From an uncultured Gammaproteobacteria bacterium (GTDB lineage Bacteria; Pseudomonadota; Gammaproteobacteria; JAURND01): a stretch of 64,000 nt of DNA. The notes below the pieces were generated by a model that was not told where the DNA came from, made no database searches, and was given only the letters and a program-made list of their open reading frames with translations. The DNA lies in assembly GCA_963714975.1 (NCBI GenBank), contig CAVQQD010000002.1:519641-583640 (forward strand). Reading direction: 5' to 3'. Position 1 is the stretch's first letter. Each line of letters starts with the position of its first letter. Positions 6,855-58,322 of this stretch are shown piece after piece. A program made the translations under genes and the position numbers.

Positions 6855-6903
6855 CCCTCATCCGCCCTTCGGGCACCTTCTCCCACAGGGGGAGAAGGAA
6901 TTA
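6855..6903. repeat. Dispersed palindromic element (gggagaagg family) between pncB and ffh
   Basis: cacccctcatccgcccttcgggcaccttctcccacagggggagaagg; close copies at 15369-15420 and 51945-52000. Confidence 0.75.
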
Positions 6904-13504: not shown

Positions 13505-13777
13505 TTAGTCGATATCATCCTCATCGACATATTTTGCAAAGCTGCCTTTTTCGTGGACTTGCTGTGAAGCAGCATCTTTTATTCCTTGTGCCACTTTTTT
13601 CAAAGCAGCTTTATTATCAAATAACCATTTTTCGCGTGCTGGGATTTCGGTATAAGGCTCTAAAATAATTCGGTCATCTTTATCTTTTTTGATTAAAAAT
13701 CCACTCACACCCTCTGCCCATCGACCTAGGGTAATTCTGCCTTTGGAATCTGGTCTTACCATTTTTACACATTTCAT
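13505..13777 (-). CDS. AbrB/MazE/SpoVT-type swapped-hairpin antitoxin-like protein
   Basis: Start at 'MKCVKMVRPDSKGRITLGRWAEGVSGFLIKKDKDDRIILEP' preceded by GAGGTGAG SD and a TTGAAT-17-TATTCT promoter. The longer ORF in the track reads through upstream receiver-domain remnant and a repeat. Confidence 0.5.
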   Translation of the reverse strand: MKCVKMVRPDSKGRITLGRWAEGVSGFLIKKDKDDRIILEPYTEIPAREKWLFDNKAALKKVAQGIKDAASQQVHEKGSFAKYVDEDDID

Positions 13778-13785
13778 TTCACTCA

Positions 13786-13860
13786 CCTCACAAAAAAGAA
13801 TAGCCCTATGTGGGATATAATTCAAGTGGGAAATAAGAAAATGTCGGAACTCAGTGAAAA
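13786..13860. promoter_or_regulatory. Promoter/leader of the antitoxin gene (-35 TTGAAT, 17 bp, -10 TATTCT, SD GAGGTGAG); first copy of a duplicated ~70-bp segment
   Basis: Read on the minus strand; second copy at 14455-14525. Confidence 0.5.
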
Positions 13861-13861
13861 T

Positions 13862-13925
13862 GTCCCCATAAAAACTCAATAGAAATCCCCCTTTGAAAAA
13901 GGGGGGGTAGGGATTAAAGAGGTTG
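13862..13925. repeat. Dispersed palindromic element (ccccctttgaaaaaggggg / gggtaggg family)
   Basis: aaatccccctttgaaaaagggggggtagggatt; related copies at 2916-2983 and 24530-24645. Confidence 0.7.
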
Positions 13926-13989
13926 ACAACTACACAGCCAACGAACGGCGGCCGTTCTTGATTCTCAAAAAAGTAACCTGTTGGTGGCT

Positions 13990-14351
13990 GCGACAAAACT
14001 AATCTATTTAGTATTTGTTCGCATAATTCATATAGTACGGGTTTGTGCAGAAATCCGCCTAATTCTAGGTTTCGCGCTTCAGTTTTTAGTTTTTCATCCC
14101 CATGCGCGGTGGCGATGAGAATTGGTGTTTGGCTATATAGGGCCTGGGCTGTGCCGAAACTGGCGAGCAACTTCCATCCCATTTAAGTCGGGCAGACCCA
14201 GGTCACAGATGATTAACAGGTAGGGGTTATGCAGCTTCTCCAATGCGACTAGCCCACAATTGGCTATATCCACATGACAACCAAGCTGTTTAAAGGAGCC
14301 GCTGATGGCGCGGGTGGCCATTGGTTCGTCATCTCTGAAGGATGAAGACAT
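13990..14351 (-). pseudogene. Single-domain CheY-like response-regulator receiver, frameshifted
   Basis: N-terminal piece 'MSSSFRDDEPMATRAISGSFKQLGCHVDIANCGLVALEKLHNPYLLIICDLGLPDLNGMEVARQFR' and, in another frame, 'TPILIATAHGDEKLKTEARNLELGGFLHKPVLYELCEQILNRL'. Frame change near 14140-14180. Confidence 0.55.
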
Positions 14352-14362
14352 TAATAATTTGA

Positions 14363-14410
14363 TGGATGCTACTTTTAGAGATGGTTCTACTATAAGAAGC
14401 ACGTGGTAGT
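14363..14410. repeat. Direct repeat (about 48 bp, 85% identical) with 15153-15200; encodes a paralogous C-terminal tail '...DATFRDGSTIRSTW*'
   Basis: gatgctacttttagagatggttctactataagaagcacgtggtagtaa versus gatggtacttttggaaatgatgctactataagaagtacgcggtagtaa. Confidence 0.7.
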
Positions 14411-14454
14411 AATTAAATGAAATAGTGTTTCTTTGTTATCTTTTATTTGTTTCA

Positions 14455-14525
14455 CATACCTCACCTCACAAAGAAGAATGGCCTAATGTGGGATGTAATT
14501 CAAGTGAGAAACAAGAAAAACATAT
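14455..14525. repeat. Second copy of the antitoxin promoter/SD/ATG segment, here followed immediately by a stop (ATG TGA), upstream of the receiver gene
   Basis: cacctcacaaagaagaatggcctaatgtgggatgtaattcaagtgagaaacaagaaaa, about 88% identical to 13786-13860. Confidence 0.65.
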
Positions 14526-14714
14526 GTTGAAATGATTAATTGCCTTTCTTTATTGAGTGTGATAAGTTTTCTAAGATTTTTAACAAAAAATATTGTAACT
14601 ATTCACCACAATTTTGGTTGCAATACTCCTTCTCCCCTTGTGGGAGAAAGAGTTCGCCCCATATCATGCTGAATGGTTACAAAATATTTTTAACTACATA
14701 TATAGAGGTGATTT

Positions 14715-15197
14715 ATGGCGGAGATCAGCATTGAAAGCAAAAGACCTGCGCAGCCAGGGTTTTTTGAAAGATTAATTTTACCTCCAGCACGATTAAATAA
14801 AGAGGATGAGATTATTAAAGGCTTTACTCTTGAGGGAAAAGAAAAAGAAAAAGAAAAAGAACAACTGATAAATTGGGTAAATAATAGCAAGTTTTGGCTC
14901 TGGGAAGGTAGGCTTGGAGCTATATTGTTTGGTGTGCTAGATACGACCCTCATTAGTATGCATTTTGGTTATGGGCAGAAGGCTAGCCCAAGTGATGTAG
15001 GCCTATATTTTATCGGATTGCTATCCGCGGTGTTTTTATATTTCGTTGTTAAGGGTGTCGTGGGTTATTGCTGTAAATTACAGGGCATCGCGGACTTGAC
15101 TGAGAGCTTACAACAAAAGAACTGGGGGGAGGATGAGATTAATAAGGTGATAGATGGTACTTTTGGAAATGATGCTACTATAAGAAGTACGCGGTAG
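14715..15197 (+). CDS. Hypothetical membrane protein with internal (GAAAAA)4 microsatellite encoding KEKEKEKE
   Basis: AGAGGTGA RBS before the ATG; two hydrophobic segments; hexanucleotide repeat at 14834-14858. Its C-terminal tail is duplicated at 14363-14410. Confidence 0.5.
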   Translation: MAEISIESKRPAQPGFFERLILPPARLNKEDEIIKGFTLEGKEKEKEKEQLINWVNNSKFWLWEGRLGAILFGVLDTTLISMHFGYGQKASPSDVGLYFIGLLSAVFLYFVVKGVVGYCCKLQGIADLTESLQQKNWGEDEINKVIDGTFGNDATIRSTR

Positions 15198-15261
15198 TAA
15201 GCAATCCATACCTCGGTTTGTAGATCAACTAGGTCCTCGTTTTTTCGTAACCATCCACCAC

Positions 15262-15422
15262 GATTTTGCCTCTCCCCTTGTGGGAGAGGCCGCCGCGCCG
15301 TAAGGCGCGCGGGTGAGGGGTAGGCAGCATTTAGCTAATAAAATGCTTCTTGCTGATTTCAAGGTTACCCCTCATCCGCCCTTTCGGGCACCTTCTCCCA
15401 CAAGGGGAGAAGGATCAATAGA
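15262..15422. repeat. Two adjacent dispersed palindromic elements (gggagaagg family) in the pyrG upstream region
   Basis: ctctccccttgtgggagaggccgccgcgccgtaaggcgcgcgggtgagggg and cccctcatccgccctttcgggcaccttctcccacaaggggagaagg. Confidence 0.7.
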
Positions 15423-15462: not shown

Positions 15463-17298
<1,836 letters not shown>

Positions 17299-21919: not shown

Positions 21920-21982
21920 ATTGTTCCTTCTCCCCTTGTGGGAGAAGGTGGCCGCAGGCCGGATGAGGGGAGAGGGGTAATA
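21920..21982. repeat. Dispersed palindromic element (gggagaagg family) whose end GAGGGGAGAGGGG supplies the SD for the next gene
   Basis: ttccttctccccttgtgggagaaggtggccgcaggccggatgaggggagaggggtaat ATG. Confidence 0.7.
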
Positions 21983-22566
21983 TGCGTCTTTTTTCTAAAT
22001 TATATAATCTGGTGATGAGTTGGTCTCAAAATCGTCATGCCCCTTATTACTTAGGTGCGGTCAGTTTTATTGAGTCTTCCCTATTTCCTATTCCCCCTGA
22101 TGTCATGTTAGCGCCGATGGTGATGGCCAAACCTGAGTCTGCTTGGCGCTATGCAGCATTGACAACTATCGCTTCGGTGTTGGGGGCGTTGTTTGGCTAT
22201 GTATTAGGCATGTTTTTTTTCCATTGGATCATGCCTTATTTTGAGCATTTGGGTTATCTCTCTGCCTACCAGCATGTGCAAACATGGTTTGCCGAATGGG
22301 GGGGCTGGGTTTTACTCGTGGTGGGTTTTACGCCCATTCCGTTTAAACTATTTACCATTGGCGCGGGAGCTCTGCATATGAGCTTGCTACCTTTTACTGT
22401 AGGGGTCTTTGTGGGAAGGGGTATGCGTTTTTATTTGGTATCTGGGTTTATGAAGTGGGGTGGAGCTAGCATGGATGCATTACTGCGACGCAGTGTTGAT
22501 TGGATTGGCTGGAGTGTAGTTGGTCTGATTATCGCAGGATATAGCATTTATGCCCTTTGGAAATAA
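21982..22566 (+). CDS. YqaA/DedA-related inner-membrane protein
   Basis: 'SFIESSLFPIPPDVMLAPM' aligns with the YqaA N-terminus; 4-5 TM segments. Confidence 0.6.
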   Translation: MRLFSKLYNLVMSWSQNRHAPYYLGAVSFIESSLFPIPPDVMLAPMVMAKPESAWRYAALTTIASVLGALFGYVLGMFFFHWIMPYFEHLGYLSAYQHVQTWFAEWGGWVLLVVGFTPIPFKLFTIGAGALHMSLLPFTVGVFVGRGMRFYLVSGFMKWGGASMDALLRRSVDWIGWSVVGLIIAGYSIYALWK

Positions 22567-29305: not shown

Positions 29306-31898
29306 ATGCCACGACTAGATAAATTCACCACCTCATTTCAAAATGCCATCATGGATGCCAAATCCATGGCGTTAGGCTTAGATAACCAAGTGATCGAACC
29401 CTTGCATCTAATGAAAGCTTTACTCGAGCAAGAGGCAGGAACAGTGCCGGCTTTGTTAGAACAAGCAGGGGTCAATCTTAATCAATTCCAAGCAAAGCTA
29501 CAGCAAGCATTAGATCGTGTACCCAAAGTGGAGGGAGCTGGCGGTGAATTAATGATTTCTCATGAATTAGATCGCTTGCTGAATGTGATGGATAAATTAG
29601 CGCGAGAGCGAAATGATGCTTTTATTGCTTCTGAACTTTTTGTAGTCGCTGCTCTCAAGGATCGAGGTGAATTAGGGCGAATTCTGCGAGAATCAGGCGC
29701 CAATGAAGCAGCGTTATTAAGCGCCATTGATAAAATTCGAGGAGGAGAGCGAGTGGAAAATCCAGAATCTGAAGGTCAACGTCAAGCCTTGGAAAAATAT
29801 ACGATTGATTTAACTGCCATGGCGAGAAAGGGTAAATTAGATCCAGTCATTGGTCGTGATGCGGTGATTATGCGCGTGATTCAAGTGTTGCAACGTCGCA
29901 CTAAAAATAATCCCGTGTTGATTGGCGAACCTGGGGTGGGTAAAACAGCTATTGTGGAAGGATTGGCGCAGCGTATTGTCAATGGTGAAGTTCCTGAGGC
30001 GATGAAAAATAAACGCATTTTGGCCTTAGACATGGGTGCATTAATTGCCGGGGCGAAATTTCGTGGTGAATTTGAAGAACGTTTAAAAGCGGTGTTAAAA
30101 GATTTAGCCAAACAAGAAGGCCAAATTATTTTATTTATTGATGAATTGCATACGATGGTGGGGGCGGGAAAAGCAGAAGGTGCCATGGATGCAGGTAATA
30201 TGTTAAAACCTGCTTTAGCACGAGGTGAATTGCATTGTGTTGGCGCGACCACATTAGATGAATATCGCAAATATATTGAAAAAGATGCAGCGTTAGAACG
30301 TCGTTTTCAAAAAGTATTAGTGGATGAACCCAGCGTTGAGGATACCATTGCTATTTTGCGTGGCTTAAAAGAACGTTATGAAGTGCATCATGGCGTAGAA
30401 ATTACTGATCCTGCCATTGTCGCTGCGGCCACCTTATCGCATCGTTATATTACTGATCGAAATTTGCCTGATAAAGCCATTGATTTAATGGATGAAGCAG
30501 CCAGTCAAATTCGCATGGAAATTGATTCCAAACCGGAAGAAATGGATCGATTAGAACGACGCTTAATTCAATTAAAAATTGAACGCGAGGCTTTGAAAAA
30601 AGAAAAAGATGAAGCCACTAAAAAACGCTTAGAACGATTTAGAAACAGAAATTCAAGCAAATTAGAAAAAGAATATGCGGATTTAGAAGAAGATTTGGAA
30701 AGCAGAAAAAGCCAGCTTGCAAGGCACGCAGCAAATTAAAGAAGCACTGGAACAAGCGCAGTGTAGAATTAGAAGCTGCACGTCGTGCCGGTGATTTAGC
30801 GCGCATGTCGGAATTACAATATGGCCGTATTCCTGAGTTAGAAAAACAATTAGCGAAGCTGCCAATTCAGCAGAAAGAAAGGCAACATAAATTATTACGT
30901 AATAAAGTGACTGAAGAAGAAATTGCTGAAGTTGTTTCAAAATGGACGCATATTCCTGTAGCAAAAATGATGGAAGGTGAGCGAGAAAAATTATTGCATA
31001 TGGAAGAAGCGTTGCATAAACGTGTTGATTGGTCAAGATGAAGCGATTAAAGTCGTTTCTAATGCGATTCGCCGTTCGCGCGCTGGGTTGTCTGATCCTA
31101 ATCGACCCATTGGTTCTTTTTTATTTTTGGGCCCCACCGGTGTTGGTAAAACTGAATTATGTAAGGCCTTAGCTGGATTTTTATTTGATACTGAAGAGGC
31201 GATGGTGCGTATTGATATGTCTGAATTTATGGAAAAACATTCGGTGGCGCGATTAATTGGCGCGCCTCCTGGTTATGTAGGTTATGAAGAAGGTGGTTAT
31301 TTAACCGAAGCAGTGCGTCGTCAGACCTTATTCGTGTGATTTTGTTAGATGAAATTGAAAAAGCACATACGGATGTATTTAATATTTTATTGCAAGTGTT
31401 AGATGATGGTCGTTTAACCGATGGTCAAGGGCGCACAGTTGATTTTCGTAATACGGTGATGGTCATGACTTCAAATTTAGGTTCGCATTTGATTCAAGAA
31501 TTGTAGCTGACGAAAGTTATACAGTAATGAAAAAAGCCGTGATGGAAATTGTTAGCAAACATTTTCGTCCTGAATTTATTAATCGAATTGATGAAATGGT
31601 GGTATTTCATCCCTTGGATAAAGAGCAGATTACCAGGATTGCTGCGTTGCAAATGGAGCAAGTGCGAAAACGCCTGCAGGAAAAAGAATTACAATTACAG
31701 CTTGATGAGCCTATTTTAGATTTCTTAGCTGATGCGGGCTATGATCCTGTTTATGGCGCCAGACCATTGAAACGTGCCATCCAGCAATATCTAGAAAATC
31801 CTTTGGCGCAGGATATTTTGTCCGGAAAATTTTTGCCAGGGGACACTATCGTGGTGAGTATGCGTGATCGTGGTGGGTTAAGGTTTGAGAAGGGATAA
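29306..31898 (+). pseudogene. clpB: Chaperone ClpB, disrupted by six single-base indels
   Basis: RBS GGAGGAAATA then '[24 protein letters not shown]'. Four ORF pieces (29306-30739, 30805-31041, 30977-31339, 31527-31898) plus an untracked piece (31336-31506 '[41 protein letters not shown]'). Indels reconstructed at about 30695, 30765, 31033, 31318, 31332 and 31506. No in-frame nonsense or obvious missense decay otherwise. Confidence 0.8.
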
Positions 31899-34770: not shown

Positions 34771-34830
34771 GTGTCATCCCGACTCCAGGGTTGTCATCCC
34801 GAACGAAGTGAGGGATCCCTCGCTGCGCTC
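34771..34830. repeat. Inverted arm and core of a gtcatcccga-family element immediately upstream of maeB
   Basis: gtgtcatcccgactccagggttgtcatcccgaacgaagtgagggatccctcgctgcgctc. Confidence 0.75.
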
Positions 34831-35057
34831 GGGATGACACCCTGGAGTCGGGATGACACCCTGGAGTCGGGATGACACCCTGGAGTCGGGATGACACCCT
34901 GGAGTCGGGATGACACCCTGGAGTCGGGATGACACCCTGGAGTCGGGATGACACCCTGGAGTCGGGATGACACCCTGGAGTCGGGATGACACCCTGGAGT
35001 CGGGATGACACCCTGGAGTCGGGATGACACCCTGGAGTCGGGATGATGCCCCGAGAG
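34831..35057. repeat. Tandem repeat: 19-bp unit gggatgacaccctggagtc x 11 perfect copies plus a degenerate 12th
   Basis: Units begin at 34831, 34850, 34869 ... 35021; derived from the right arm of the adjacent palindromic element. Not CRISPR-like (no spacers). The three overlapping minus-strand ORFs with 19-aa repeats in the track are artefacts of this array. Confidence 0.9.
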
Positions 35058-35987
35058 TCATGTTTTTTTTTCTTGCTTTTGTTCCTTTTTTTCTTCCTCG
35101 AAGTGGGGATTCGCAGTTGGTATCAAACTAATTAATCGCTTGTGATTTCCTTTCGTTTTGTTGCTCTCTGGATGATTTTGAATTCGAATATATTCTATGC
35201 CACTGGTTTGATCTTCTTGCCAGGGCAAGTGCTGATATACACTTTCACCAATCAATGGCAGCACAGGATATTTAATGATATCGAAAAACGGGGAGAAATC
35301 AAAATCTTTGGGAGTGAACAAGCGTGGGTTGCGACTCACCAGAGTGATTCCTTCTTTATCTTCAATGATTTCCGGTAAAATCGGGAAGTGCACTGTTTGA
35401 AATGCGCTAGCAATCATTGAAGAACATATTTCCTCCGTGGGTTTTAGCGCGTTATGTACAAATAAGGTAGAACGCCATTTTCTGGGCAAAACTCCCCACG
35501 GAAATAAAAAACGAAATAAATCGATCACATGCCTGAGACTATAGCGCATTCCAAGGTGGTTAATGCCATAGCCAATCACTTTTTGTGCGTCTTCGCGTGA
35601 TAGCCCACGGGGGCGGCAGATGCGAATATTGTAATCTTTGTAGCGCACCAGCGAGGTCACAATAGTTCCCCGGCCGACCATGCTTTCAATCAGCAATTGC
35701 TCATCTGGTGGCCCTTTGTAATATTTTTTAACCTGAGCTCGCAGGTGAATATCATCGATATCATACAGGCGACCAATATACAGGGTAGAGTGAGACCACA
35801 TGCTATGAGTGACCTGCTTAATAATATCACTCATGCGATTACGCCCTTCTACCAGCAGGACATCGCCAGGTCTGATTTCAAAACGAATTTTTTCAAAATC
35901 GTATAAAAAGGCCGGTTTTAGTGGGGGTTCGCGTAAGAACCATTTGCTAAAACTAATAATAATCCGTTGGGCAAATTTAGACTTCAT
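35058..35987 (-). CDS. Hypothetical protein, possibly YiiX/permuted-papain-fold (NlpC/P60-like) family
   Basis: Start 'MKSKFAQRII' 1 nt after the purB stop. 'PGDVLLVEGRNRMSDIIKQVTHSMWSHSTLYIG' resembles YiiX-type motif. Lys/Glu-rich C-terminal tail. Assignment tentative. Confidence 0.4.
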   Translation of the reverse strand: MKSKFAQRIIISFSKWFLREPPLKPAFLYDFEKIRFEIRPGDVLLVEGRNRMSDIIKQVTHSMWSHSTLYIGRLYDIDDIHLRAQVKKYYKGPPDEQLLIESMVGRGTIVTSLVRYKDYNIRICRPRGLSREDAQKVIGYGINHLGMRYSLRHVIDLFRFLFPWGVLPRKWRSTLFVHNALKPTEEICSSMIASAFQTVHFPILPEIIEDKEGITLVSRNPRLFTPKDFDFSPFFDIIKYPVLPLIGESVYQHLPWQEDQTSGIEYIRIQNHPESNKTKGNHKRLISLIPTANPHFEEEKKEQKQEKKT

Positions 35988-39146: not shown

Positions 39147-39204
39147 CCCTCCCCCCATAAGCTTTTGCATTATTCCTTCTCCCCTGGTGGGAGAAGGAAT
39201 AATG
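39147..39204. repeat. Dispersed palindromic element (gggagaagg family) ending in GGAGAAGGAATAATG upstream of pstS
   Basis: ttccttctcccctggtgggagaaggaataatg; creates an out-of-frame ORF (39187-39417) overlapping the pstS start. Confidence 0.7.
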
Positions 39205-39229
39205 TCAAAGGGTGTATCAGGAGTAATAT

Positions 39230-40260
39230 ATGAAAATTTTATTTTGGTTAACAGGACTAGCACTGCTAGTCTCAAGTGCTGCCTTAGCGGACACCATATT
39301 AACTGGAGCGGGTGCCACTTTCCCTTATCCACTTTACGTCAAATGGGCACAGGCCTATCAGAAGAAAATCGCTGTGCGTTTAAATTATCAACCTATTGGT
39401 TCGGGTGGCGGTATTAATCAGATACAAGCTAAAACAGTGGATTTTGGCGCTTCAGATAAGCCTTTATCGAAAGAAGAGTTAACAGCTAGTCACTTAATCC
39501 AATTTCCTACAGTGGTGGGTGGGGTGGTTCCTGTGATTAATTTGCTTGGAATCCCCAGTGGACAGCTGAAACTTTCAGGTCCAGTCTTAGCCAATATTTA
39601 TTTAGGTAAAATTAAAAAATGGAATGACCCAGCCATTGTGGCTTTAAATCCACAGCTTTCCCTACCGAATAAAGGTATTGTAGTAGTCCATCGTTCTGAT
39701 GGTTCAGGGACAAGCTATCTCTTTACCTACTATTTAAGTCAGGTAAGCCCAGAATGGCAAACGCGGGTAGGTAGTAATACAGCAGTGGCTTGGCCTGTGG
39801 GAATTGGCGGGAAAGGTAATGAAGGGGTAGCTTCCTATACCCAGCGGGTCAATGGCAGTATTGGTTATGTTGAGTATGTCTATGCGGCACAAAATAAACT
39901 GAACTATGTGCAATTGATTAATCAAGCAGGCCATGCAGTTTCTCCTTCATTAGAATCTTTTGAAGCAGCGGTAAGTCAGCTACTTGGGATTCAGAGCAGC
40001 AATTTGCTGGCAGCATTACCAATAGCCCAGGTGCAGATAGTTGGCCTATTACTGGCGCCACATTTATCCTGATGCAAACTGAACAAGATAATCCTGAAAA
40101 AGCCAAGGCAGTATTGGCATTCTTTGCTTGGGCCTATAAAGAGGGACAAGCAATGACCAAGGAATTAGATTATGTTCCTTTAGAAGATAAGGAAATTCAG
40201 CTAATTCAAGCCTCTTGGAAGCAAAATATTAAAGACAAGGCAGGAAACCCCATTTGGTAA
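39230..40260 (+). CDS. pstS: Phosphate ABC transporter substrate-binding protein PstS, apparent single-base deletion frameshift near 39967
   Basis: CAGGAG RBS; signal peptide; PstS sequence. The C-terminal 95 aa continue in the +1 frame ('...ASGKSATWDSEQQFAGSITNSPGADSWPITGATFILMQTEQD...[10 protein letters not shown]'). Two ORFs in the track (39230-40072, 40072-40260). Confidence 0.75.
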
Positions 40261-42113
40261 CTAAATTGTCACAGCAATTCCAAACCCAGCGCCGCTTCGA
40301 TCAACTGTTATTGGCAGTTGCTCTTTTCTTTGCCATTGTTTTACTCGTATTAGCTGGCTGTATTGTTTTTAAATTGTATCAGGCTAGCATCCCAAGCCTC
40401 CAAGCCTTTGGTTTGAGGTTTTTGATTAGCAGCGAATGGAATCCGGTAACCGAGCAGTTTGGTGCTTTAGTCGCAATTTTAGGGACTTTAACTACAGCTT
40501 TTATTGCGCTTTTGCTAGGAATCCCGATTAGCTTTGGTATTGCTGTATTTCTTACTGAGCTAGCTCCGACTATGCTTCGTCGCCCGTTACGCATTTTAAT
40601 TGAATTACTTGCTGGAATTCCCAGTATTATTTATGGCATGTGGGGACTGTTTATTTTTGCTCCCCTTTTCGCAGACACAGTCCAGCCTTGGTTAATCGAA
40701 CATTTGGGTAGTAGACCCCTAATTGGCCCATTTTTCCAAGGGGTCCCAATGGGAATTGGGATATTAACCGCTGGAATTGTACTCAGTATTATGGTGATTC
40801 CTTTTATTGCCTCGGTAATGCGTGATGTTTTTGAGATTGTACCTGATCTACTTAAAGAATCTGCCTATGCTTTGGGCGCCACTCGTTGGGAAGTAGTGTG
40901 GAATGTGATCCTACCCTATTCTCGTATTGGTGTTGTGGGTGGAATTATTTTGGGATTAGGCCGTGCTTTGGGAGAGACAATGGCAGTCGCTTTTGTGATT
41001 GGCAATTCACATGCATTATCCGCCTCAATTTTGATGCCAGGCAGCAGCATTTCCTCAGTATTAGCCAATGAATTTACTGAGGCCACTGGAAAAATTTATA
41101 GCTCCTCTTTAAGCGAATTAGGGTTAATTTTGTTTGCGATCACTTTAGTGGTTTTTGTGTGTGCCAAGTTATTGACGCAGAGGTTAAAAAAGATCCTCCT
41201 CTCTCATGCCTTCTCCCCTTGTGGGAGAAGGCGCCGAAGGCGGATGAGGGGAAAACCGGAAAAAAATATGACACTACTGTATATTAAACGCAGATTAGTT
41301 AATTTTATTAATCTATCCCTTGCGACCTTGGCTATGCTGATTGGCCTATTGTGGCTAAGCTGGATTTTATTTAGCCTGGTTCAAAATGGCTTACCAGGTT
41401 TCTCTTGGGCACTTTTTACCCAGATTACCCAAGCACCGGGTGGCCAAGGTGGGTTATTAAATGCCATTATTGGCAGTTTATTAATCGTGTTTTTTGCGGT
41501 CATCATTGGTGCTCCCATCGGTTTATTAGTGGGCACTTATCTTGCCGAGTTTGGAAAATATAGCCGATTTGCCCGCATCGTACGCTTTGTTAATGATATT
41601 TTATTGAGTGCTCCGTCGATTATTTTAGGTTTGTTTATTTATCAACTCTATGTCGTCAATGTGCAACATTTTTCAGGCTGGGCTGGTTCTTTTGCCTTAG
41701 CATTCTTAGTGGTGCCTATTGTCGTGCGCATTACCGAAGATATGTTTCTATTAGTGCCTAGTTCATTGCGAGAAGCGGCGGCTGCTTTAGGTGCTCCGCG
41801 GTGGAAAGTAATTGCTGAAATTGTGCTACGGGTGTCGAGAACGGGGGTGATCACTGGGATTCTATTAGCTTTAGCCAGGATTAGCGGTGAGACAGCCCCC
41901 TTGTTATTTACTGCGTTAAATAACCAATTTTTGAGCTTTAATATGAACCACCCCATGGCCAATTTACCTTCAGTAATTTTTCAGTATGCCATGAGTCCTT
42001 ATGCCGATTGGCACCAATTAGCATGGGCAGGAGCATTACTCATTACCGCCTGTGTTTTGGGATTGAATATTATCGTGAGAGTTGTGTTTAAACAAAAGCC
42101 GCCAATCACTTAG
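40254..42113 (+). CDS. pstCA: PstC-PstA phosphate permease as one 619-aa ORF, joined through an in-frame repeat element
   Basis: Residues 1-300 align to PstC and 330-619 to PstA ('[34 protein letters not shown]...'). Junction '[24 protein letters not shown]' is encoded by the repeat at 41205-41262 with no stop codon. Confidence 0.8.
41205..41262. repeat. Dispersed palindromic element (gggagaagg family) occupying the pstC/pstA junction, open in frame
   Basis: ctctcatgccttctccccttgtgggagaaggcgccgaaggcggatgaggggaaaacc. Confidence 0.75.
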
Positions 42114-42121
42114 GGGTTTGC

Positions 42122-42883
42122 ATGAAACAAGACGAAAAGATCAGGACGCGCGATTTAAATTTTTACTATGCCAAGTTTCGTGCGCTTAAAAATATTAATG
42201 TGAGCGTCATCAAAAATCATGTGACAGCACTGATCGGCCCCTCAGGTTGCGGCAAATCGACTTTGTTACGCACTTTTAATCGCATGTATGAGTTATATGA
42301 TGAACAACACGCTTTAGGGGAAGTGTGGTTAGATCAGGAAAATATTCTAACGCCTCGCTATGATTTAAATCGATTGCGCAGCCGAGTTGGGATGGTATTT
42401 CAAAAACCAACGCCATTTCCTATGTCGATTTTTGATAATGTCGCCTTTGGGGTAAAGTTATATGAAAATTTAAGCCATGTGGAGTTAGCTGCCCGAGTTG
42501 AATGGGCACTTCGCAAGGCTGCCTTATGGAGAGAAGTAAAGGATATATTAAAACTAAGTGGCCTAGGACTTTCGGGTGGTCAGCAGCAACGGCTTTGTAT
42601 TGCTAGAGCCATCGCGGTAAGACCTGAGGTTATTTTATTAGATGAACCAACTTCGGCATTAGACCCGCTCTCTACCGCTCGTATTGAAGAATTAATTCGG
42701 GAATTAAAAGACGATTATACTATTTGCATCGTCACGCATAATATGCACCAAGCAAAAAGAATTTCCGATTACACCGCATTTATGTATTTAGGGCGAATGA
42801 TTGAATACAATAAAACTGAAGTAATTTTTTCTAACCCAACAGAGCAAGCAACCAAAGATTTCATTTCGGGAAAAGTGGGATAA
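42122..42883 (+). CDS. pstB: Phosphate ABC transporter ATP-binding protein
   Basis: 'GPSGCGKST', '[14 protein letters not shown]', '[10 protein letters not shown]'. Confidence 0.9.
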
Positions 42884-42888
42884 TTTTT

Positions 42889-43575
42889 ATGCAAGCAAAT
42901 CTGGGCATTTTAATTGTCGAAGATGAGGAACCCATTAAGGAAATGCTTAAACGTTGTTTAGAAATGGCGGATTATCGTGTCATGGAAGCTACAGATACAA
43001 CTCAAGCTGAAAAGCGAATTCAGCAAGAGATGCCGGATTTATTATTGTTAGATTGGATGCTGCCTGGCCTAAGTGGCATTGATTATGTGCAAGTGTTACG
43101 CAAGAGCGCTCTAACCGCACATTTACCTATTATTTTGTTAACAGCTCGTGCCGAAGAAGAAAGTAAGATCCGCGGCTTAGATATGGGTGCGGATGATTAT
43201 GTCACTAAGCCTTTTTCACCACGAGAACTTATTACGCGCATCAAAACGGTGCTGCGACGTGGTCCTTTGGTGGAGGCAAATGCTATTTTGATGGTGCGAG
43301 GTTTAATGGTTGATACTCAGTCCTGCCAGGTGACACTGGCAGGAAGGAAATTATCGCTCACCACCGACAATTATCAGCTGTTGCTTTTTTTTATGCAGCA
43401 CCCTCGAAAAGTTATTTCTCGTGAAAGTTTATTAATGCATGTTTGGGGTGGAGATAAAGGCGCCAGTGATCGCAGTGTCGATGTTCAGATATTGCGCTTG
43501 CGCAAGATATTAGCACAGCATGGCTGTGATGATTTGATTCACACGGTAAGAGGTTTGGGATACCAATTTCGCTGA
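42889..43575 (+). CDS. phoB: Phosphate regulon response regulator PhoB (OmpR family)
   Basis: Receiver 'ILIVEDEEPIKEML...LLDWMLPGLSG' and winged-helix output domain; 228 aa. It follows pstB directly with no phoU between. Confidence 0.85.
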   Translation: MQANLGILIVEDEEPIKEMLKRCLEMADYRVMEATDTTQAEKRIQQEMPDLLLLDWMLPGLSGIDYVQVLRKSALTAHLPIILLTARAEEESKIRGLDMGADDYVTKPFSPRELITRIKTVLRRGPLVEANAILMVRGLMVDTQSCQVTLAGRKLSLTTDNYQLLLFFMQHPRKVISRESLLMHVWGGDKGASDRSVDVQILRLRKILAQHGCDDLIHTVRGLGYQFR

Positions 43576-44324
43576 TGCCAATGAATAGTAATGAACTCGT
43601 GTTGACCTCTTTAATATTTTTAGATACCCAATTGCGTCTCTTGGAAAGTATGCGGCAAGATTTTGTCGCGAATGTTTCTCATGAATTACGTACGCCGCTT
43701 ACCGTATTTCATGGCTATTTAGAAATGCTTTTGGATCTGACAAATCAACCAGGTAATGAGCAACATCAAATCTTAGAGCAAATGTATCAACAAAGTTTAC
43801 GCATGAGCCAGTTGATTGAAGATTTGTTGCTTTTGTCACGTTTGGATAGTTATGTCAGTAAAGATAAATGCAGTTCAGTTGATGTGCCTTATTTACTTAA
43901 AACCATTGCTGAAGATGCTCGAGTGCTTAGTCGAGAGCAACAGCACAAAATCGAACTCTATATCGATGATCAATTAAAAATCCAAGGGATTGAGCGTGAA
44001 TTAAGCAGTGCATTTTCCAATCTTATTATTAATGCTATTAATTATACCCCGATGGGCGGTGAAATTAAGATTCGTTGGTTTAAGCAACAGCATCAGGCCT
44101 ACCTGGAAGTCATTGATACCGGTATTGGTATTGCGCCCGAACATATTCCTCGACTGACCGAGCGATTTTATCGAGTAGACAAGGCTCGTTCACGCAGCAC
44201 CGGTGGTACTGGTTTAGGCTTGGCCATTGTGAAACATGTTTTGTTACGACATAAAGCCAATTTAAAAATTGCCAGCGAGTTAGGTCAGGGCAGTAGCTTT
44301 ACCTGCATTTTTCCGCTGCTCTAG
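43575..44324 (+). CDS. phoR: PhoR-like histidine kinase consisting only of DHp and catalytic domains (no TM, charged or PAS sensor region)
   Basis: ORF begins at the phoB stop. H-box 'VSHELRTPLTVFHGYLEML' lies about 30 aa from the N-terminus; N, G1 and G2 boxes present; 249 aa against about 430 aa for canonical PhoR. Confidence 0.7.
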   Translation: MPMNSNELVLTSLIFLDTQLRLLESMRQDFVANVSHELRTPLTVFHGYLEMLLDLTNQPGNEQHQILEQMYQQSLRMSQLIEDLLLLSRLDSYVSKDKCSSVDVPYLLKTIAEDARVLSREQQHKIELYIDDQLKIQGIERELSSAFSNLIINAINYTPMGGEIKIRWFKQQHQAYLEVIDTGIGIAPEHIPRLTERFYRVDKARSRSTGGTGLGLAIVKHVLLRHKANLKIASELGQGSSFTCIFPLL

Positions 44325-49429: not shown

Positions 49430-50511
49430 TTAACGCAACTTCAGCGAAGCGAGTCCGCATAGCACCAGCATGAAGGTAATAATCCAAAACCGCACGATTA
49501 CTCGAGGTTCAGGCCAGCCTTTGAGCTCAAAATGGTGATGAAGGGGAGCCATTTTAAAAATACGTTTACCGGTGAGCTTAAATGAAGCGACCTGTAATAT
49601 CACCGAAAGCGTTTCTATTACAAATACCCCGCCCATAATAAAGAGCACTAATTCTTGGCGAACAATTACTGCCACAATACCTAAAGCAGCGCCTAGTCCT
49701 AAAGCGCCTACATCACCCATAAATACCTGGGCAGGATAAGTGTTGAACCATAAAAAGCCTAAGCCTGCTCCGACCAGAGCGGCGCAAAAGACTGCGACTT
49801 CTCCTGCACCAGGGACATAGGGAATGGTTAAATATTTAGAAAATTCAAAATTACCACTTAAATAAGCAAAAATAGCCATAGCGCCAGCGACCATTACTGT
49901 GGGCAGAATGGCCAGCCCATCTAGGCCATCAGTCAGGTTGACGGCATTACTGGTGCCGACAATCACAAAATAAGCCAATAAAATATACAACAAACCTAAG
50001 TTAATACTGACATTCTTGAGATAGGGAATTAACAACTGGGTTTCAGCAGGTGTTTTCGCCATGTAGTAGAGAATAACAGCGATGGTAATACCCAATATAG
50101 ATTGCCAAAGATATTTCCAGCGCGCTGGTAAACCACTGGGTGATTTCTTGCTAAGTTTTAGATAATCATCTAACCATCCAATAATGCCAAATCCCAGCAT
50201 ACCAAACAGGGTTAGCCAAATGTAGGGATTGGCTAAATACCCCACAACAAAATGCTGGCGCTGATAGCAATGAGGATTAGGGTGCCTCCCATAGTGGGTG
50301 TGCCGGCTTTGGAGAAATGGCTCTTCGGTCCATCGTTGCGCACCACTTGCCCGACTTGATGATGACTGAGCGCATCAATCATTTTGGGGCCGACAATCAG
50401 AGCGATCACCAGCGCAGTGAGCGCGGCGAGAATCGAGCGAAAAGTGAGATATTGAAAAACCCGAAAGCCTTCGTAATAGTGTTGTAAAAATTGCGTTAGC
50501 CAAAGTAACAT
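49430..50511 (-). CDS. mraY: Phospho-N-acetylmuramoyl-pentapeptide transferase; apparent -1 error in a G4 run near 50246
   Basis: Two ORFs (50233-50511, 49430-50245) align to MraY. Adding one G to 'ttgtggggtattta' restores '...[14 protein letters not shown]...'. Confidence 0.85.
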
Positions 50512-50512
50512 A

Positions 50513-51926
50513 TTAAGCCTCTCCTTCTAAAGCAGCGACAATTTTCCCATTTTGCATCGAGCGCGATCCTTTAATCAATGCGGTCGTTTGAGCATTAAGT
50601 TGTAATTTCAAGGCAGCAATTAATTGCTGTTGTTCAGAAAAATGTTGGGCTTGCTGACCAAAGGCTGCTACTGCTAAGCGGCTCAACTCACCATAGGCAA
50701 ATAATTGCGTAATGCCCAAACGCTGTGCTTCATAGCCAAGCAATTTTAATGAAATATTCGGGCCCATAGGAGCCTAATTCTTTCATGTCGGCAAGTACCA
50801 AAATTTTAATTCCGGGCATATGAGCTAATACTTCAATAGCTGCTTGGGCTGAGCGTGGATTGGCATTGTAACTATCATCAATAATCCGTGCGCCATTGGT
50901 TAAGTATTTTATTTGTAAGCGTTTGTTTACCGCTTGAGTATTTTCCAAGCCCTGTTTTATCGCAGTCAATGGTATATTCAGTGCGCAAGCGCAAGCAGCT
51001 GCTGCCAAGGCATTGGCAATATTATGTTTTCCTAGCAGAGGCAGTTGAATAAAAATGGTTCCATAGGGGGTATGTAGAGTAAATTCAGGATTTCCTTCGG
51101 GATTTATTAAGGGACTTTCTGCCCAAATAGATGCTTTTTTCTGAAGGCCAAAGTGGAGAATTTTCTTGGTTGGCACGAGAGATTCCCAATAGGGGGCAAA
51201 GTGATCGTCAGCATTAATGATGGCAATTCCAGTCTCATCGAGTCCGCGAAAAATTTCGCCTTTTGCCTGTGCTACTCCTTCTAGAGTTTGTACTCCTTGC
51301 AAATGAGCAGGTGCTGCATTAGTAATTAGGGCAATGGTCGGATGAGCGAGCTGCGATAAATGAGCAATTTCACCAAAATGATTCATCCCTATTTCAATCA
51401 CGGCATATTGATGATCAGAATTTAATCCCAATAGGGTCAGCGGGACACCGATTTCATTATTAAAACTTTTTTCGCTAGCCAAAACTTTGTTGGATCCCTC
51501 GCTGCGCTCGGGATGACACCCCTGCTCGGGATGACACGCCTGCTCGGGATGACCCCCCCCCTGCTGCAGAATGCTGGCGAGCATAGAGCGCACGGTAGTT
51601 TTACCACAACTACCGGTGATGCCGATCATTGGCAGCGTAAATTGTTGCCGATGAAAACGCGCAAATTGTCCCAGTGCCTGAATCGTGTCGTTGACTTGTA
51701 GCTGTGGTAGCGGGCAGGGCAGGGGGTGCTGGACCAAGGCGGCAGCGGCCTGCTGTTGTTTTGCCATGGCAATAAAATCATGGCCATCGAAATGAGGGCC
51801 TTTGATGGCGACAAATAATTCTCCAGGTTGTAAGCTGCGGGTATCCGTGCTCACACCTTGAAAACAGACATCTGCGCCTAACAGTTGGCCGCTAAGTAAA
51901 TGGCTAAGACTTGAAAGTTGTATCAT
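50513..51926 (-). CDS. murF: UDP-MurNAc-pentapeptide synthetase MurF; apparent single-base indel near 50760, plus an in-frame repeat insertion
   Basis: ORFs 50730-51926 and 50513-50767 match the MurF N- and C-terminal parts. Frame change at 'tatgggcccgaat' (ggg/ccc runs). The 51492-51561 element is translated '[23 protein letters not shown]' just after the P-loop 'GSCGKTT'. Confidence 0.85.
51492..51561. repeat. gtcatcccga-family element with three partial 15-bp tandem units and a C9 homopolymer, in frame inside murF
   Basis: ggatccctcgctgcgctcgggatgacacccctgctcgggatgacacgcctgctcgggatgaccccccccc; C-run 51553-51561. Confidence 0.8.
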
Positions 51927-51937
51927 TATACACTCCC

Positions 51938-52042
51938 TCTCCCTACTGCCCTCTCAAATCCCCCTCATCCGGCCTGCGGCCACCTTCTCCCACAAGGGGA
52001 GAAGGGATGCTGCCGAGAGTTTATAGAGGAGAGGGGATTAGA
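51938..52042. repeat. Dispersed palindromic elements (gggagaagg and gagaggggat types) between murE and murF
   Basis: ccctcatccggcctgcggccaccttctcccacaaggggagaagggatgctgccgagagtttatagaggagaggggatta. Confidence 0.7.
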
Positions 52043-56520: not shown

Positions 56521-56976
56521 TTATAACGAAAAAGACTGCAGTTCCGGTGGCGTCAGTTCCTCTTGGGATTCTTCAGACAACCATCCGTCTCGTCCCGACT
56601 GCCAATTTTTCTCGCTCCAAAGCTCAAATTTTTTCCCTTGCCCTACCAAAATGACTTGTTTTTCGAGGTGGGCATAATCACGTAATAAAGTAGGCAATAA
56701 GAATCGACCATTACTATCCAGTTCTATTTCAGTGGCATGTCCAATCAGCAGACGTTGAATTCGTCTGGTGGCTTTATGAAAACTCGGTAGTGCATCGATT
56801 TTTGCTTCAATTAACTCCCATTCGGGGAGTGGATAAAGTAATAAGCAAGCTGCTTGTGTATCGATAGTGAGAATAAGCTGTCCCTTGGATAGGGTTTCCA
56901 GACGAGCACGATAGCGAGCGGGTATCGCTAAACGTCCTTTAGGGTCCAGACTTATTAAGTTTATTCCTCGGAACAC
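56521..56976 (-). CDS. mraZ: Transcriptional regulator MraZ
   Basis: 'MFRGINLISLDPKGRLAIPARYR' duplicated MraZ domain; 151 aa. Confidence 0.9.
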   Translation of the reverse strand: MFRGINLISLDPKGRLAIPARYRARLETLSKGQLILTIDTQAACLLLYPLPEWELIEAKIDALPSFHKATRRIQRLLIGHATEIELDSNGRFLLPTLLRDYAHLEKQVILVGQGKKFELWSEKNWQSGRDGWLSEESQEELTPPELQSFSL

Positions 56977-58322
56977 AACTTTACTCCACTATCACCCACT
57001 TTTCTCCACATTATGGCACTAAATTTCCAAAATGCAAGAAGGTGCGCAATGCGCACCACCCGAATTTCCTTCTCCCCTTGTGGGAGAAGGAATAATGACG
57101 GACAGTCAAGCTCGCTTGATAATCCCCATGTCCCCACAAGACATGCTACGAGTTTTTGGGGAATGGTGATTTTTTTTGGGGGGGGGAAAGACTCTGGGTT
57201 GAGGAGATTTTCCTCCGATCTGGATATAACTTTTGGATCCTTTGGTATTTTAAAAACTTGTTGCGCTTTTTGTTCTTGGATTTGTTGAAATTGTTTTTCT
57301 CGTTCTTCTTCTTCATCATCAGAGTGGTAGGATGCAGCATTACTCATCAGGCTTTCTCTGCTTATGGTAGGGTATACCCCCTTGAAGGTTCGTATATAGG
57401 GGGGGCTGGTAGGATCCTGGTCGATGCGGCGTTGGCTTAGATTTAGATTTGAATCATCCGTCGTTCTTGGTTGCACTTCTGGGGTTTTGGGGATAGGGAG
57501 TGTTTCAAGTAGGGGGATATAGCGTGGTCTCGAGAGCAAAGTTTTATAAGCAATTTCGGCCCCTTCGCCAAACAGGCCATGCGCAAGGCCATAACTTAAA
57601 TCTTTTCCCACTAGACTGAGCCTAGTTTTCCAAGGCAGATGTTCATCAATCTCGGTGGTCGAGATTTTGCATGGCTCGGTGAATTGTGCATAAATACTAT
57701 CGGTAATAATTCGGGCAATGAGTATGGTGATAGAGAGCATCATTAGATAGTGCATTTCTGTGGATAGAGAGTTTGAGCTAATATTTAGTTTTCTTTTAAT
57801 AAACTCGAGAGAAAGTTGCGTAGATTGATAGTCTTTAGCGAGCCAAATTGCAGGAATTGCCGTGACGACAAAATCAAGCGTGTACTCGCTGAGTTTTTTT
57901 TCATAATTTTTATTTTGTAAATAGATTTCCTCATCGGATATACGCGCTAGTTGCGTATGCAGGTCTTTATACTCAGCACTTGCTATAGCAATTTTATAGG
58001 CATTAATAGCCTCAATTTTCCTTTTTCGCTGATGCGCTAATTTGTGCAGGGCATTGTCCTTGTTGAAATAACGATAAAGCGTTTTGAATAAAGAAAGGCA
58101 GGAACCTAGAAAAGGTAAACTAAGATTTAAAATACTATGCAGACCCACGCTAATCCAGGATGCCCACCCTGGTGCTGGGATATTAGCTTGTGCTTCTAGT
58201 TGCGCTTGCTGGTGTGGCTCGGAAAGTTGTGGTTCTTTCCCAGTGGTTGGGGCTTTGGGAACCTCTGGGTCATAGTTATCACTAGAATCAGACCTTGATT
58301 TTTCTTCTTTGATGTTTTCCAA
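56961..58322 (-). CDS. Hypothetical acidic coiled-coil protein (effector-like) containing a repeat element and T8/G9 homopolymer tracts near its 3' end
   Basis: 453-aa uninterrupted ORF; acidic 'SDDEEEEREKQFQQIQEQKAQQ'; TM-like segments; repeat 57062-57097 translated 'SLFLLPQGEKEI'; tract 57170-57186 translated 'PPPKKI'. Confidence 0.45.
   Translation of the reverse strand: MENIKEEKSRSDSSDNYDPEVPKAPTTGKEPQLSEPHQQAQLEAQANIPAPGWASWISVGLHSILNLSLPFLGSCLSLFKTLYRYFNKDNALHKLAHQRKRKIEAINAYKIAIASAEYKDLHTQLARISDEEIYLQNKNYEKKLSEYTLDFVVTAIPAIWLAKDYQSTQLSLEFIKRKLNISSNSLSTEMHYLMMLSITILIARIITDSIYAQFTEPCKISTTEIDEHLPWKTRLSLVGKDLSYGLAHGLFGEGAEIAYKTLLSRPRYIPLLETLPIPKTPEVQPRTTDDSNLNLSQRRIDQDPTSPPYIRTFKGVYPTISRESLMSNAASYHSDDEEEEREKQFQQIQEQKAQQVFKIPKDPKVISRSEENLLNPESFPPPKKITIPQKLVACLVGTWGLSSELDCPSLFLLPQGEKEIRVVRIAHLLAFWKFSAIMWRKVGDSGVKLCSEE
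57062..57097. repeat. Dispersed palindromic element (gggagaagg family) ending GGAGAAGGAATAATG, inside CDS 56961-58322
   Basis: ttccttctccccttgtgggagaaggaataatg, near-identical to 39175-39204. Confidence 0.75.
57170..57186. repeat. Adjacent homopolymers T8 then G9 within a coding region
   Basis: gattttttttgggggggggaaag read directly. Confidence 0.9.

Follow-up and report, generated by a model that had tools for sequence, protein, structure and literature searches.

Fusion of pstC and pstA in one reading frame

In the 64 000-nt stretch of gammaproteobacterial DNA analyzed here (referred to as the window), the phosphate-transport genes pstC and pstA form one open reading frame (ORF) in which the two coding parts are joined by a copy of a short palindromic repeat. 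The best explanation, to which we give a probability of roughly 0.68, is that this repeat was inserted near the end of pstC and displaced the pstC frame into that of pstA, with a single fused chain as the product. The ORF lies on the plus strand at 40254-42113, begins with TTG and encodes 619 amino acids (aa) with zero internal stop codons. Its parts are as follows.

40254-41192, plus strand: PstC-homologous part (residues 1-313), whose TTG start overlaps the pstS stop
41193-41267, plus strand: bridge of 25 codons (residues 314-338), with nine Arg/Lys and one acidic residue
41268-42113, plus strand: PstA-homologous part (residues 339-619 plus the stop codon)

Pfam places two BPD_transp_1 stretches within the ORF. 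The nearest relative that we retrieved is a contig of a gammaproteobacterial metagenome-assembled genome (DASZWJ010000017; locus L081). By BLASTP, residues 4-313 of the fused ORF correspond to residues 27-336 of its PstC with 77% identity, and residues 339-619 correspond to residues 1-282 of its PstA with 80% identity, the latter match starting exactly at M339 (ATG at 41268-70), the equivalent of Met1 of L081 PstA. Bridge residues 314-338 have no counterpart in L081. The NCBIfam equivalog models identify both halves well above their cut-offs: TIGR02138 (PstC) scores 398.3 bits against 196.45 and covers fused-ORF residues 19-311 on profile positions 4-295 of 296, while TIGR00974 (PstA) scores 399.1 bits against 193.45 and covers residues 353-614 on positions 4-269 of 272. 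A further PstA model, NF008430, scores 448.2 bits against a cut-off of 439. Among experimental structures, the halves match E. coli PstC (PDB 9k3s_B, E=2e-99) and E. coli PstA (9k3s_A, E=5e-99), both from 2026 cryo-EM structures. ORF translation, BLASTP and NCBIfam therefore agree with an earlier interpretation made without database searches (the sequence-only reading), which had proposed an uninterrupted 619-aa ORF joining a PstC and a PstA part. The limits that it gave for the two halves, residues 1-300 and 330-619, were approximately right but are replaced by the BLASTP bounds, and the native pstA start that it had pointed out (MTLLYIK) does survive, being the ATG at which the match to L081 PstA begins.

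Separate pstC and pstA genes in relatives

The gene order in L081, pstS-pstC-pstA-pstB-phoB-phoR, is identical to that of the window, and both L081 and a second relative, L082, have pstC and pstA as two genes. At the L081 junction, pstC ends in ...RLQNYRAV-TAA, which is followed by AA and then by the ATG of pstA, with no element in between. No clean pstC-pstA fusion was found among 82 related loci (0/82), in which the distance from the pstC stop to the pstA start is mostly -4 to +30 nt and six have an ATGA overlap at the junction. The sole apparent fusion among them, L048, was rejected as its junction consists of out-of-frame frameshift junk. Because L081 and all related loci examined keep two genes, the fused state is derived.

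The fused protein forms a one-member cluster, and its exact sequence is on record from one contig of 1.24 Mb. Relatives of MutL and PstC are Gammaproteobacteria; for MutL, the best match has 63% identity and places the host as a deep-branching member of the group. A search for a closer strain to compare at the junction yielded, among the matches listed, genome-collection relatives whose best segment reached no more than 72% identity, and a metagenome scan with the junction region found nothing.

Fusions of PstC and PstA are common in other lineages. Among the best 150 representatives of clusters at 50% identity, about 75 match both halves and have a length of 560 aa or more. An ancestral fusion of the kind present in other lineages, with a linker that merely resembles the repeat, could on this ground be considered for the window as well. 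We regard it as extremely improbable given the two-gene arrangement in L081 and the related loci, the lack of any protein between 77% and 100% identity to the fused protein, linker DNA that fits the repeat family base for base, and PstA homology that begins exactly at the old Met1.

The repeat unit within the bridge

The bridge contains a REP-like unit composed of two hairpins and a G-rich tail, set between a left flank and a short stretch of other sequence.

41209-41251, plus strand: REP-like unit of 43 nt (hairpin 1, hairpin 2 and tail)
41209-31, plus strand: hairpin 1, an invariant 9-bp hairpin, CCTTCTCCCC-TTGT-GGGAGAAGG
41232-41, plus strand: hairpin 2, a short GC hairpin, CGCC-GAA-GGC(G)
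41242-51, plus strand: G-rich tail, GGATGAGGGG
41193-41208, plus strand: left flank of 16 nt, ATCCTCCTCTCTCATG, which pairs with the element tail in the predicted fold
41252-67, plus strand: last 16 nt of the bridge, AAAACCGGAAAAAAAT, non-repeat sequence

According to the sequence-only reading, the bridge was exactly an element of a gggagaagg family at 41205-41262. A member of the family does join the two genes, but its core is confined to 41209-41251 and the last 16 nt of the bridge are not repeat sequence. The predicted RNA fold of 41170-41290 (121 nt) has a free energy of -39.9 kcal/mol (z = -4.1). The left flank either came with the inserted element or is what remains of the old pstC tail; ATCCCCTCTCC modules resembling it are found to the left of the copies at 21926, 39175 and 51983. 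Across an equal span, the junction copy is 2-3 nt shorter than the other full copies of the window, and its hairpin 2 has one base pair (2 nt) less than that of the window's other copies. Runs of A on both sides of the insert (AAAAAAG ... AAAACC) could be a target-site duplication or plain local sequence, and the repeat unit, palindromic throughout, has ends that are hard to define. Homopolymers are abundant at the junction (A6, C4, G4, A4 and A7). A consensus scan of the plus strand found no terminator or promoter at the junction element.

A repeat family in the window and beyond

The hairpin 1 pattern, CCTTCTCCC-N5-GGGAGAAGG with up to two mismatches, occurs nine times in the window as compared with 0.00 expected from 100 shuffles, and five of these copies have the full three-part architecture. 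Seven of the nine lie in spacers between ORFs, several of which separate co-directional genes, one lies at the pstC/pstA junction and one inside the 3' end of an unannotated ORF. Copies away from the junction include the following.

6855-6898, 21926-21969 and 51962-52005: repeat copies
15266-15413: inverted doublet of the repeat
39168-39204: hairpin-only copy, a palindrome with a 17-bp stem, CATTATTCCTTCTCCCC-TGG-TGGGAGAAGGAATAATG

The hairpin-only copy fills most of the 90-nt spacer between an ABC-3 permease gene and pstS. The murE/murF junction (51927-52020) contains the copy at 51962-52005, and the spacer just after ffh also contains a copy.

A metagenome scan for hairpin 1 retrieved at least 120 stretches from contigs with 42-72% G+C. 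We counted the layout in 80 of them (loci L083-L162), which contain 97 copies. In 70 of the 97, hairpin 1 is followed by one T, a variable GC-rich hairpin and the GGATGAGGGG tail; the second hairpin has 3-11 bp and a loop that is usually GAA or GCA. Among the 12 copies with an 18-nt second hairpin, four of the seven base pairs change on both sides, 96% of the hairpin cells are paired as compared with 50-58% when the partners are slid, and none of 500 shuffles reaches the covariation score. Inverted pairs 75-130 nt apart are frequent, with at least 10 metagenome loci in addition to the doublet in the window. The unit also occurs on plasmids or chromids of Rhizobium (90 records), Shinella (17), Xanthomonas, Planctomyces, Azospirillum and others, where it is almost always unannotated. 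It is thus common to a gammaproteobacterium with a small genome of 44% G+C and soil bacteria with 60-70% G+C.

REP and REPIN elements are short extragenic palindromes and their inverted doublets, which are moved by RAYT transposases; they were reportedly treated by Bertels and Rainey in 2011. The repeat described here resembles them as a short imperfect palindrome with many copies, almost always intergenic, often within operons and in inverted doublets. In contrast to REPs, which have a single hairpin with a GTAG head, it consists of two hairpins and a conserved G-rich tail, and its presence in distant phyla is unusual for a REP-like sequence. We found no Rfam family match in the window at gathering thresholds and only chance-level matches around the element (E at least 0.67). 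Literature searches with the repeat's own sequence returned only unrelated primer matches and no family name; the RIME elements of Rhizobium are a possible point of comparison. No Y1_Tnp match indicative of a RAYT was present among the about 35 ORFs scanned with Pfam in these 64 kb of the genome. The repeat is a REP/REPIN-like, cross-phylum family, being a short, multicopy and mostly intergenic palindrome with inverted doublets.

Two further observations concern other copies in the window. An unannotated 453-aa ORF at 56961-58322 on the minus strand, which has no Pfam match and overlaps the mraZ start by 16 nt, reads through the repeat copy at 57068-57090 in its last 43 or so codons, and may be a second instance of the repeat changing a C-terminus. 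At the gene starting at 21982 and at murF (51926), the repeat tail or GGGAGAGGG flank lies just upstream of the ATG (21949-21984 and 51924-51982, respectively), and the strongest predicted Shine-Dalgarno pairing comes from the repeat (-8.7 and -8.9 kcal/mol). Where it comes between coupled genes, the repeat may provide ribosome-binding sites. At pstA, the distance of 16 nt between tail and start codon is too great for this.

Reading frames and the origin of the join

The junction between pstC and pstA normally has essentially no spacer, so an insertion there must hit coding sequence. The frame of the bridge that is now read is open. The +1 frame has a TGA at 41245 within the element tail and another at 41269, and the +2 frame is open until the TAA at 41285-87. 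The second of these TGA codons belongs to a start-stop overlap at the beginning of pstA:

41268-71, plus strand: ATGA, in which a TGA of the +1 frame overlaps the start codon of pstA

This TGA is likely the original pstC stop, now out of frame. After in-silico excision of 43 or 58 nt, pstC has 319-324 aa and ends in ...NRKKI at the ATGA, whereas after excision of 44, 56 or 59 nt it ends in ...KKYDTTVY at 41285. The genes stay fused only after excisions that are multiples of three. Since the length of the insert is not a multiple of three, the pstC stop was most likely bypassed by a change of frame and probably not deleted. The statement of the sequence-only reading that the repeat removed the pstC stop is probably wrong in detail, as the TGA of the ATGA and the TAA at 41285-87 persist in other frames. 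The exact boundaries of the insertion, and a route by frame shift rather than loss of the stop, are what we infer from the present sequence.

In the mechanism that we propose, a repeat of the REP/REPIN type would have been inserted into the last few codons of pstC, just upstream of a stop that overlapped, or lay just inside, the pstA start. With a length of about 43 or 58 nt, which is not a multiple of three, the insert would have displaced the pstC frame into the pstA frame, the element being open by chance in the frame now read; about one in three such landings would have this outcome. Ribosomes starting at pstC would then run through the element and on into pstA, and the product would be a 619-residue chain composed of PstC, a 25-residue arginine-rich cytoplasmic tether and PstA. 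A history in two steps, an insertion followed by the loss of 2 nt, is equally possible because a copy of canonical length would bring the TGA of the tail in frame.

Free PstA could also be made by internal initiation at the ATG at 41268, either beside the fused chain or in place of one that does not work. The native ATG and its A-rich leader are intact, and the predicted anti-Shine-Dalgarno pairing of the -20 region (-5.5 kcal/mol) equals the window median. This pairing, however, comes from the GGGG of the tail at least 16 nt from the ATG, and the last 12 nt reach only -3.5 kcal/mol. L081 also has no good ribosome-binding site here and probably uses coupling to pstC termination; coupled initiation of pstA is impossible at the fused junction because there is no pstC stop. 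Without a stop, every pstC ribosome would still make the fused chain. We therefore consider internal initiation unlikely.

Predicted structure and viability of the fused chain

PstC and PstA have six membrane helices each, and transmembrane helix 1 (TM1) of either subunit is packed onto TM2-6 of its partner (PMC12976172). The PstC C-terminus and the PstA N-terminus are therefore near each other on the cytoplasmic side, where both ends of each subunit lie, and a tethered chain could fold as the usual PstC/PstA pair in the manner of naturally fused permeases. An AlphaFold2 model of the fused chain, built with a 52-sequence alignment, has a mean predicted local distance difference test (pLDDT) score of 90.5 and a predicted TM-score (pTM) of 0.88. 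The pLDDT is 72, 51 and 63 in three blocks over residues 311-340 and above 90 on either side, with predicted helices at 280-318 and 338-382 flanking this only low-confidence stretch. In Foldseek comparisons, the PstA half of the model superimposes on E. coli PstA (9k3x_A) with a TM-score of 0.93 and an rmsd of 1.8 A, the PstC half on E. coli PstC (9k3y_B) with a TM-score of 0.90 and an rmsd of 2.1 A, and the whole model aligns with the naturally fused permease FbpB (9j4r_A) over 579 columns with a TM-score of 0.60. The model thus predicts the six-helix fold in each half and the packing of the halves as a pseudo-symmetric dimer.

Cytoplasmic loops of membrane proteins tend to be positively charged, which is known as the positive-inside rule, and the nine Arg/Lys against one acidic residue in the bridge fit a cytoplasmic loop on this basis. 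The phosphate site of the E. coli transporter includes the Arg/Glu pairs R237/E241 of PstC and R220/E224 of PstA (PMC12976172). Both pairs are kept in the fused ORF, in GRALGETM (R237 and E241) and ARISGETA (R542 and E546), at invariant or nearly invariant columns.

The fused chain looks viable, and nothing in its predicted architecture opposes a working single-chain permease. On this view the chain would be made and would work, although its function is uncertain given the frameshift in pstS and the truncation of phoR within this operon. We hold only tentatively the full proposal that the fused gene is real and functional, with the repeat having provided an arginine-rich tether in one step to create a single-chain PstCA permease.

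State of the operon, assembly quality and alternative explanations

Outside the fused ORF, the operon is a mixture of intact and damaged genes, and two other conserved genes of the window also contain changes of frame.

39230-40260, plus strand: pstS, with a single -1 frameshift near 39970 (GCGG-TAAG) that leaves a 280-aa ORF and a 62-aa ORF
42122-42883, plus strand: pstB, intact ATPase gene (TIGR00972, 377 bits against a cut-off of 343; 78% identity to L081)
42889-43575, plus strand: phoB, intact response regulator gene (TIGR02154, 275 bits, just under the cut-off of 296; 56% identity to L081)
43575-44324, plus strand: phoR, with the N-terminal 83-104 residues gone (only HisKA and HATPase_c by Pfam)
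49433-50511, minus strand: mraY, with a single frameshift in a stretch of four C/G (about 50240-50243)
29312-31850: clpB, with at least four frame changes, near 30700, 31025, 31324-36 and 31500-18

A tblastn search with L081 PstS (347 aa) places residues 20-247 at 39278-39961 and residues 256-346 at 39985-40257 in different frames, and the first part matches PBP_like_2 (Pfam). A shortened G-run may account for the frameshift, which would cost the product about 65 residues at its C-terminus. The sequence-only reading, given for 39147-42113, mentions neither this frameshift nor the hairpin-only repeat copy in that range, and the damage to phoR, mraY and clpB is likewise missing from it. In phoR, L081 PhoR aligns only from residue 84 and the TIGR02966 profile is covered at positions 105-333 of 333; because the start codon neatly overlaps the phoB stop, the loss is a real deletion and not a frameshift. 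Truncated PhoR proteins of such a type tend toward constitutive activity. No Pho box fitting the E. coli consensus, which may not be that of this lineage, was found upstream of pstS, either in L081 or in the window.

The mraY gene is 63-66% identical to E. coli MraY, with residues 1-90 and 92-360 in different frames, and its break comes either from a sequencing error or from very recent inactivation of a gene that is essential for the cell wall. The breaks in clpB are mostly +1 insertions outside homopolymers and cluster in the second half of the gene. With E. coli clpB it shares collinearity and 71% nucleotide identity, and every segment is conserved (55-91% identical to E. coli ClpB). Since sequencing error accounts for these breaks no less well than recent decay, we dropped clpB as proof of true decay. 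Taken together, the frameshifts of the window would fit either indel errors left in the assembly or genes inactivated very recently as the genome shrinks.

Several points weigh against the proposed insertion and fusion. The databases contain no second genome of the organism in which the junction could be confirmed. Since mraY, clpB and pstS are also frameshifted, the assembly may have an indel at this site, and a miscalled base in this homopolymer-rich region could create or hide a fusion. A repeat copy of canonical length would put the tail TGA at 41245 in frame and keep the genes separate. For a PstSCAB system, an intact PstS is missing from the window, although its break could be a sequencing error, and phoR is without its N-terminal membrane anchor and PAS region, the sensor part. 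The Pst system may therefore already be out of use, which would leave the fusion of no consequence.

One alternative is an assembly artefact, in which the element is real but a length error of one or two bases in the element or the A-runs has opened the frame, pstA being a separate gene. The true pstC stop would then be the TGA at 41245, the TGA at 41269 or the TAA at 41285. Such an error is in keeping with the homopolymers at the junction, with the broken frames of the conserved genes pstS, mraY and clpB, and with the 2 nt that junction hairpin 2 lacks relative to the other copies in the window, which if added would bring the TGA at 41245 in frame. The shortened hairpin, however, has lost a complete base pair and still folds, as expected of a real variant and unlike a one-base miscall. 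By a rough estimate, even if all of the at least seven breaks in 64 kb were errors, the rate would be about 1e-4 per base and the chance of one in the 76-nt junction below 1%, or below 10% with a tenfold enrichment at homopolymers. Only an error of the right sign yields a fusion, which brings the rough estimate to about 1% or less, or a few per cent if homopolymers are error-prone. A random insertion would be in the pstA frame one time in three anyway, and many long genes in the window are intact. We therefore judge an assembly artefact to be improbable.

Under operon decay, the Pst-Pho system would be unused, the insertion a neutral lesion and the fused product non-functional or irrelevant. 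The frameshifted pstS and the phoR without its N-terminal membrane and PAS part point in this direction, as do the upstream spacer of pstS, which is just 90 nt and mostly repeat, and the setting, with the protein coming from a 1.24-Mb contig and the window having other broken genes and dense repeats. On the other hand, neither stops nor frameshifts interrupt pstC, pstA, pstB and phoB, whose products share 56-80% identity with those of L081, and the phosphate-site residues are kept. The main argument for decay vanishes if the pstS frameshift is a sequencing error, as suspected for mraY, and a second pstS elsewhere in the genome is possible, as one window was seen. Decay of the operon is possible, although we think it doubtful.

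Relation to known repeats and fused permeases

Small palindromic repeats in frame inside genes are well known, including the Rickettsia palindromic elements (RPEs), ERIC, BOX and other MITEs, which are miniature transposable elements with inverted repeats (PMC10969869, with Ogata et al. 2000 as cited there for RPEs). Similar to RPEs, the repeat at pstC/pstA is a multicopy palindrome read as protein without breaking the host ORF, at a place tolerated by the fold and in a small genome. RPEs, however, are about 100-150 bp long, specific to Rickettsia and located within single genes, whereas the repeat of the window has 43-58 nt, is found across phyla and lies at a gene junction, where it joins two genes instead of lengthening one. 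Membership in the RPE family was rejected in view of this length, the gammaproteobacterial host and the occurrence on Rhizobium, Shinella and Xanthomonas plasmids.

A paper on the Chunjie MITE by Chen et al. in 2008 is said by its title to report that operon structure is kept. Chunjie, from Geobacter uraniireducens, disrupts one of two phosphate-uptake operons, as stated in an excerpt of a published account (PMC10969869). As far as that excerpt goes, the two cases share a small non-autonomous repeat inside a pst operon, but Chunjie is a 235-bp MITE with terminal inverted and direct repeats, and no gene fusion is described in the excerpt. Literature searches for REP-mediated gene fusion or pstCA fusions found nothing specific.

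The fused chain is like FbpB (9j4r_A) and the fused PstC-PstA proteins P0077, P0095, P0096 and P0100 in having both membrane domains on one chain; of these, the planctomycete-type fusions P0077 and P0100 pass both the PstC and the PstA family models. In contrast to such lineage-fixed fusions, which have ordinary linkers of 60-110 aa, the fusion of the window is a singleton with a 25-aa linker made from a repeat, and its relatives are unfused. The fusions in Salmonella (P0005) and Citrobacter koseri (P0008), 616 aa each, are also single-genome events joining adjacent pstC and pstA. In these two, however, the genes abut in the same frame with about two residues added and no inserted element. Separately, a group of proteins of about 1060-1150 aa (P0287-P0388) match PstC-PstA only in their C-terminal 560 or so residues and have an extra N-terminal part of about 480-500 aa; they may be larger fusions of Pst components.

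The pstC/pstA junction is a tidy but precedented case of selfish DNA reshaping genes. What sets it apart is the position of the repeat, which joins two genes where a stop meets a start, and the membership of the repeat in a cross-phylum REP-like family. A real junction would show that a palindromic repeat of very small size can go beyond lengthening a protein and weld adjacent operon genes, with a covalent link replacing stop-start translational coupling in a transporter architecture that tolerates fusion, and would thereby suggest a route to the fused permeases of many lineages. Should the fused gene also be functional, it would be a caught-in-the-act origin for fused permeases of ABC importers such as FbpB and the lineage-fixed PstC-PstA proteins. 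For annotation, the lesson is that repeats at gene junctions can yield apparent fusions that pipelines label as pseudogenes or as novel architectures. The repeat family itself, with its invariant hairpin, covarying hairpin and G-rich tail, may merit its own study.

Other repeats and duplications in the window

Small repeats are unusually frequent in the window. At 34774-35096, between the malic-enzyme gene and the gene after it, a 19-nt unit is repeated in tandem, with at least 12 copies in register. Copies of a second palindromic repeat family, GTCATCCCGAGCGAAGCGAGGGATC, are found at 17181, 17228, 32962, 33013, 34791, 34814, 46003, 51493 and 58582, and a third, G-rich family, GAAGGTGGGAGAGGGTTAGGGAGAGGGGG, at 3383, 19416, 30154 and 58504. 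Diverged duplicates of about 80% identity are present in 13505-15200, pairing 13763-13841 with 14441-14519 and 14340-14412 with 15128-15200; they flank ORFs without a Pfam match and look like a tandemly duplicated gene.

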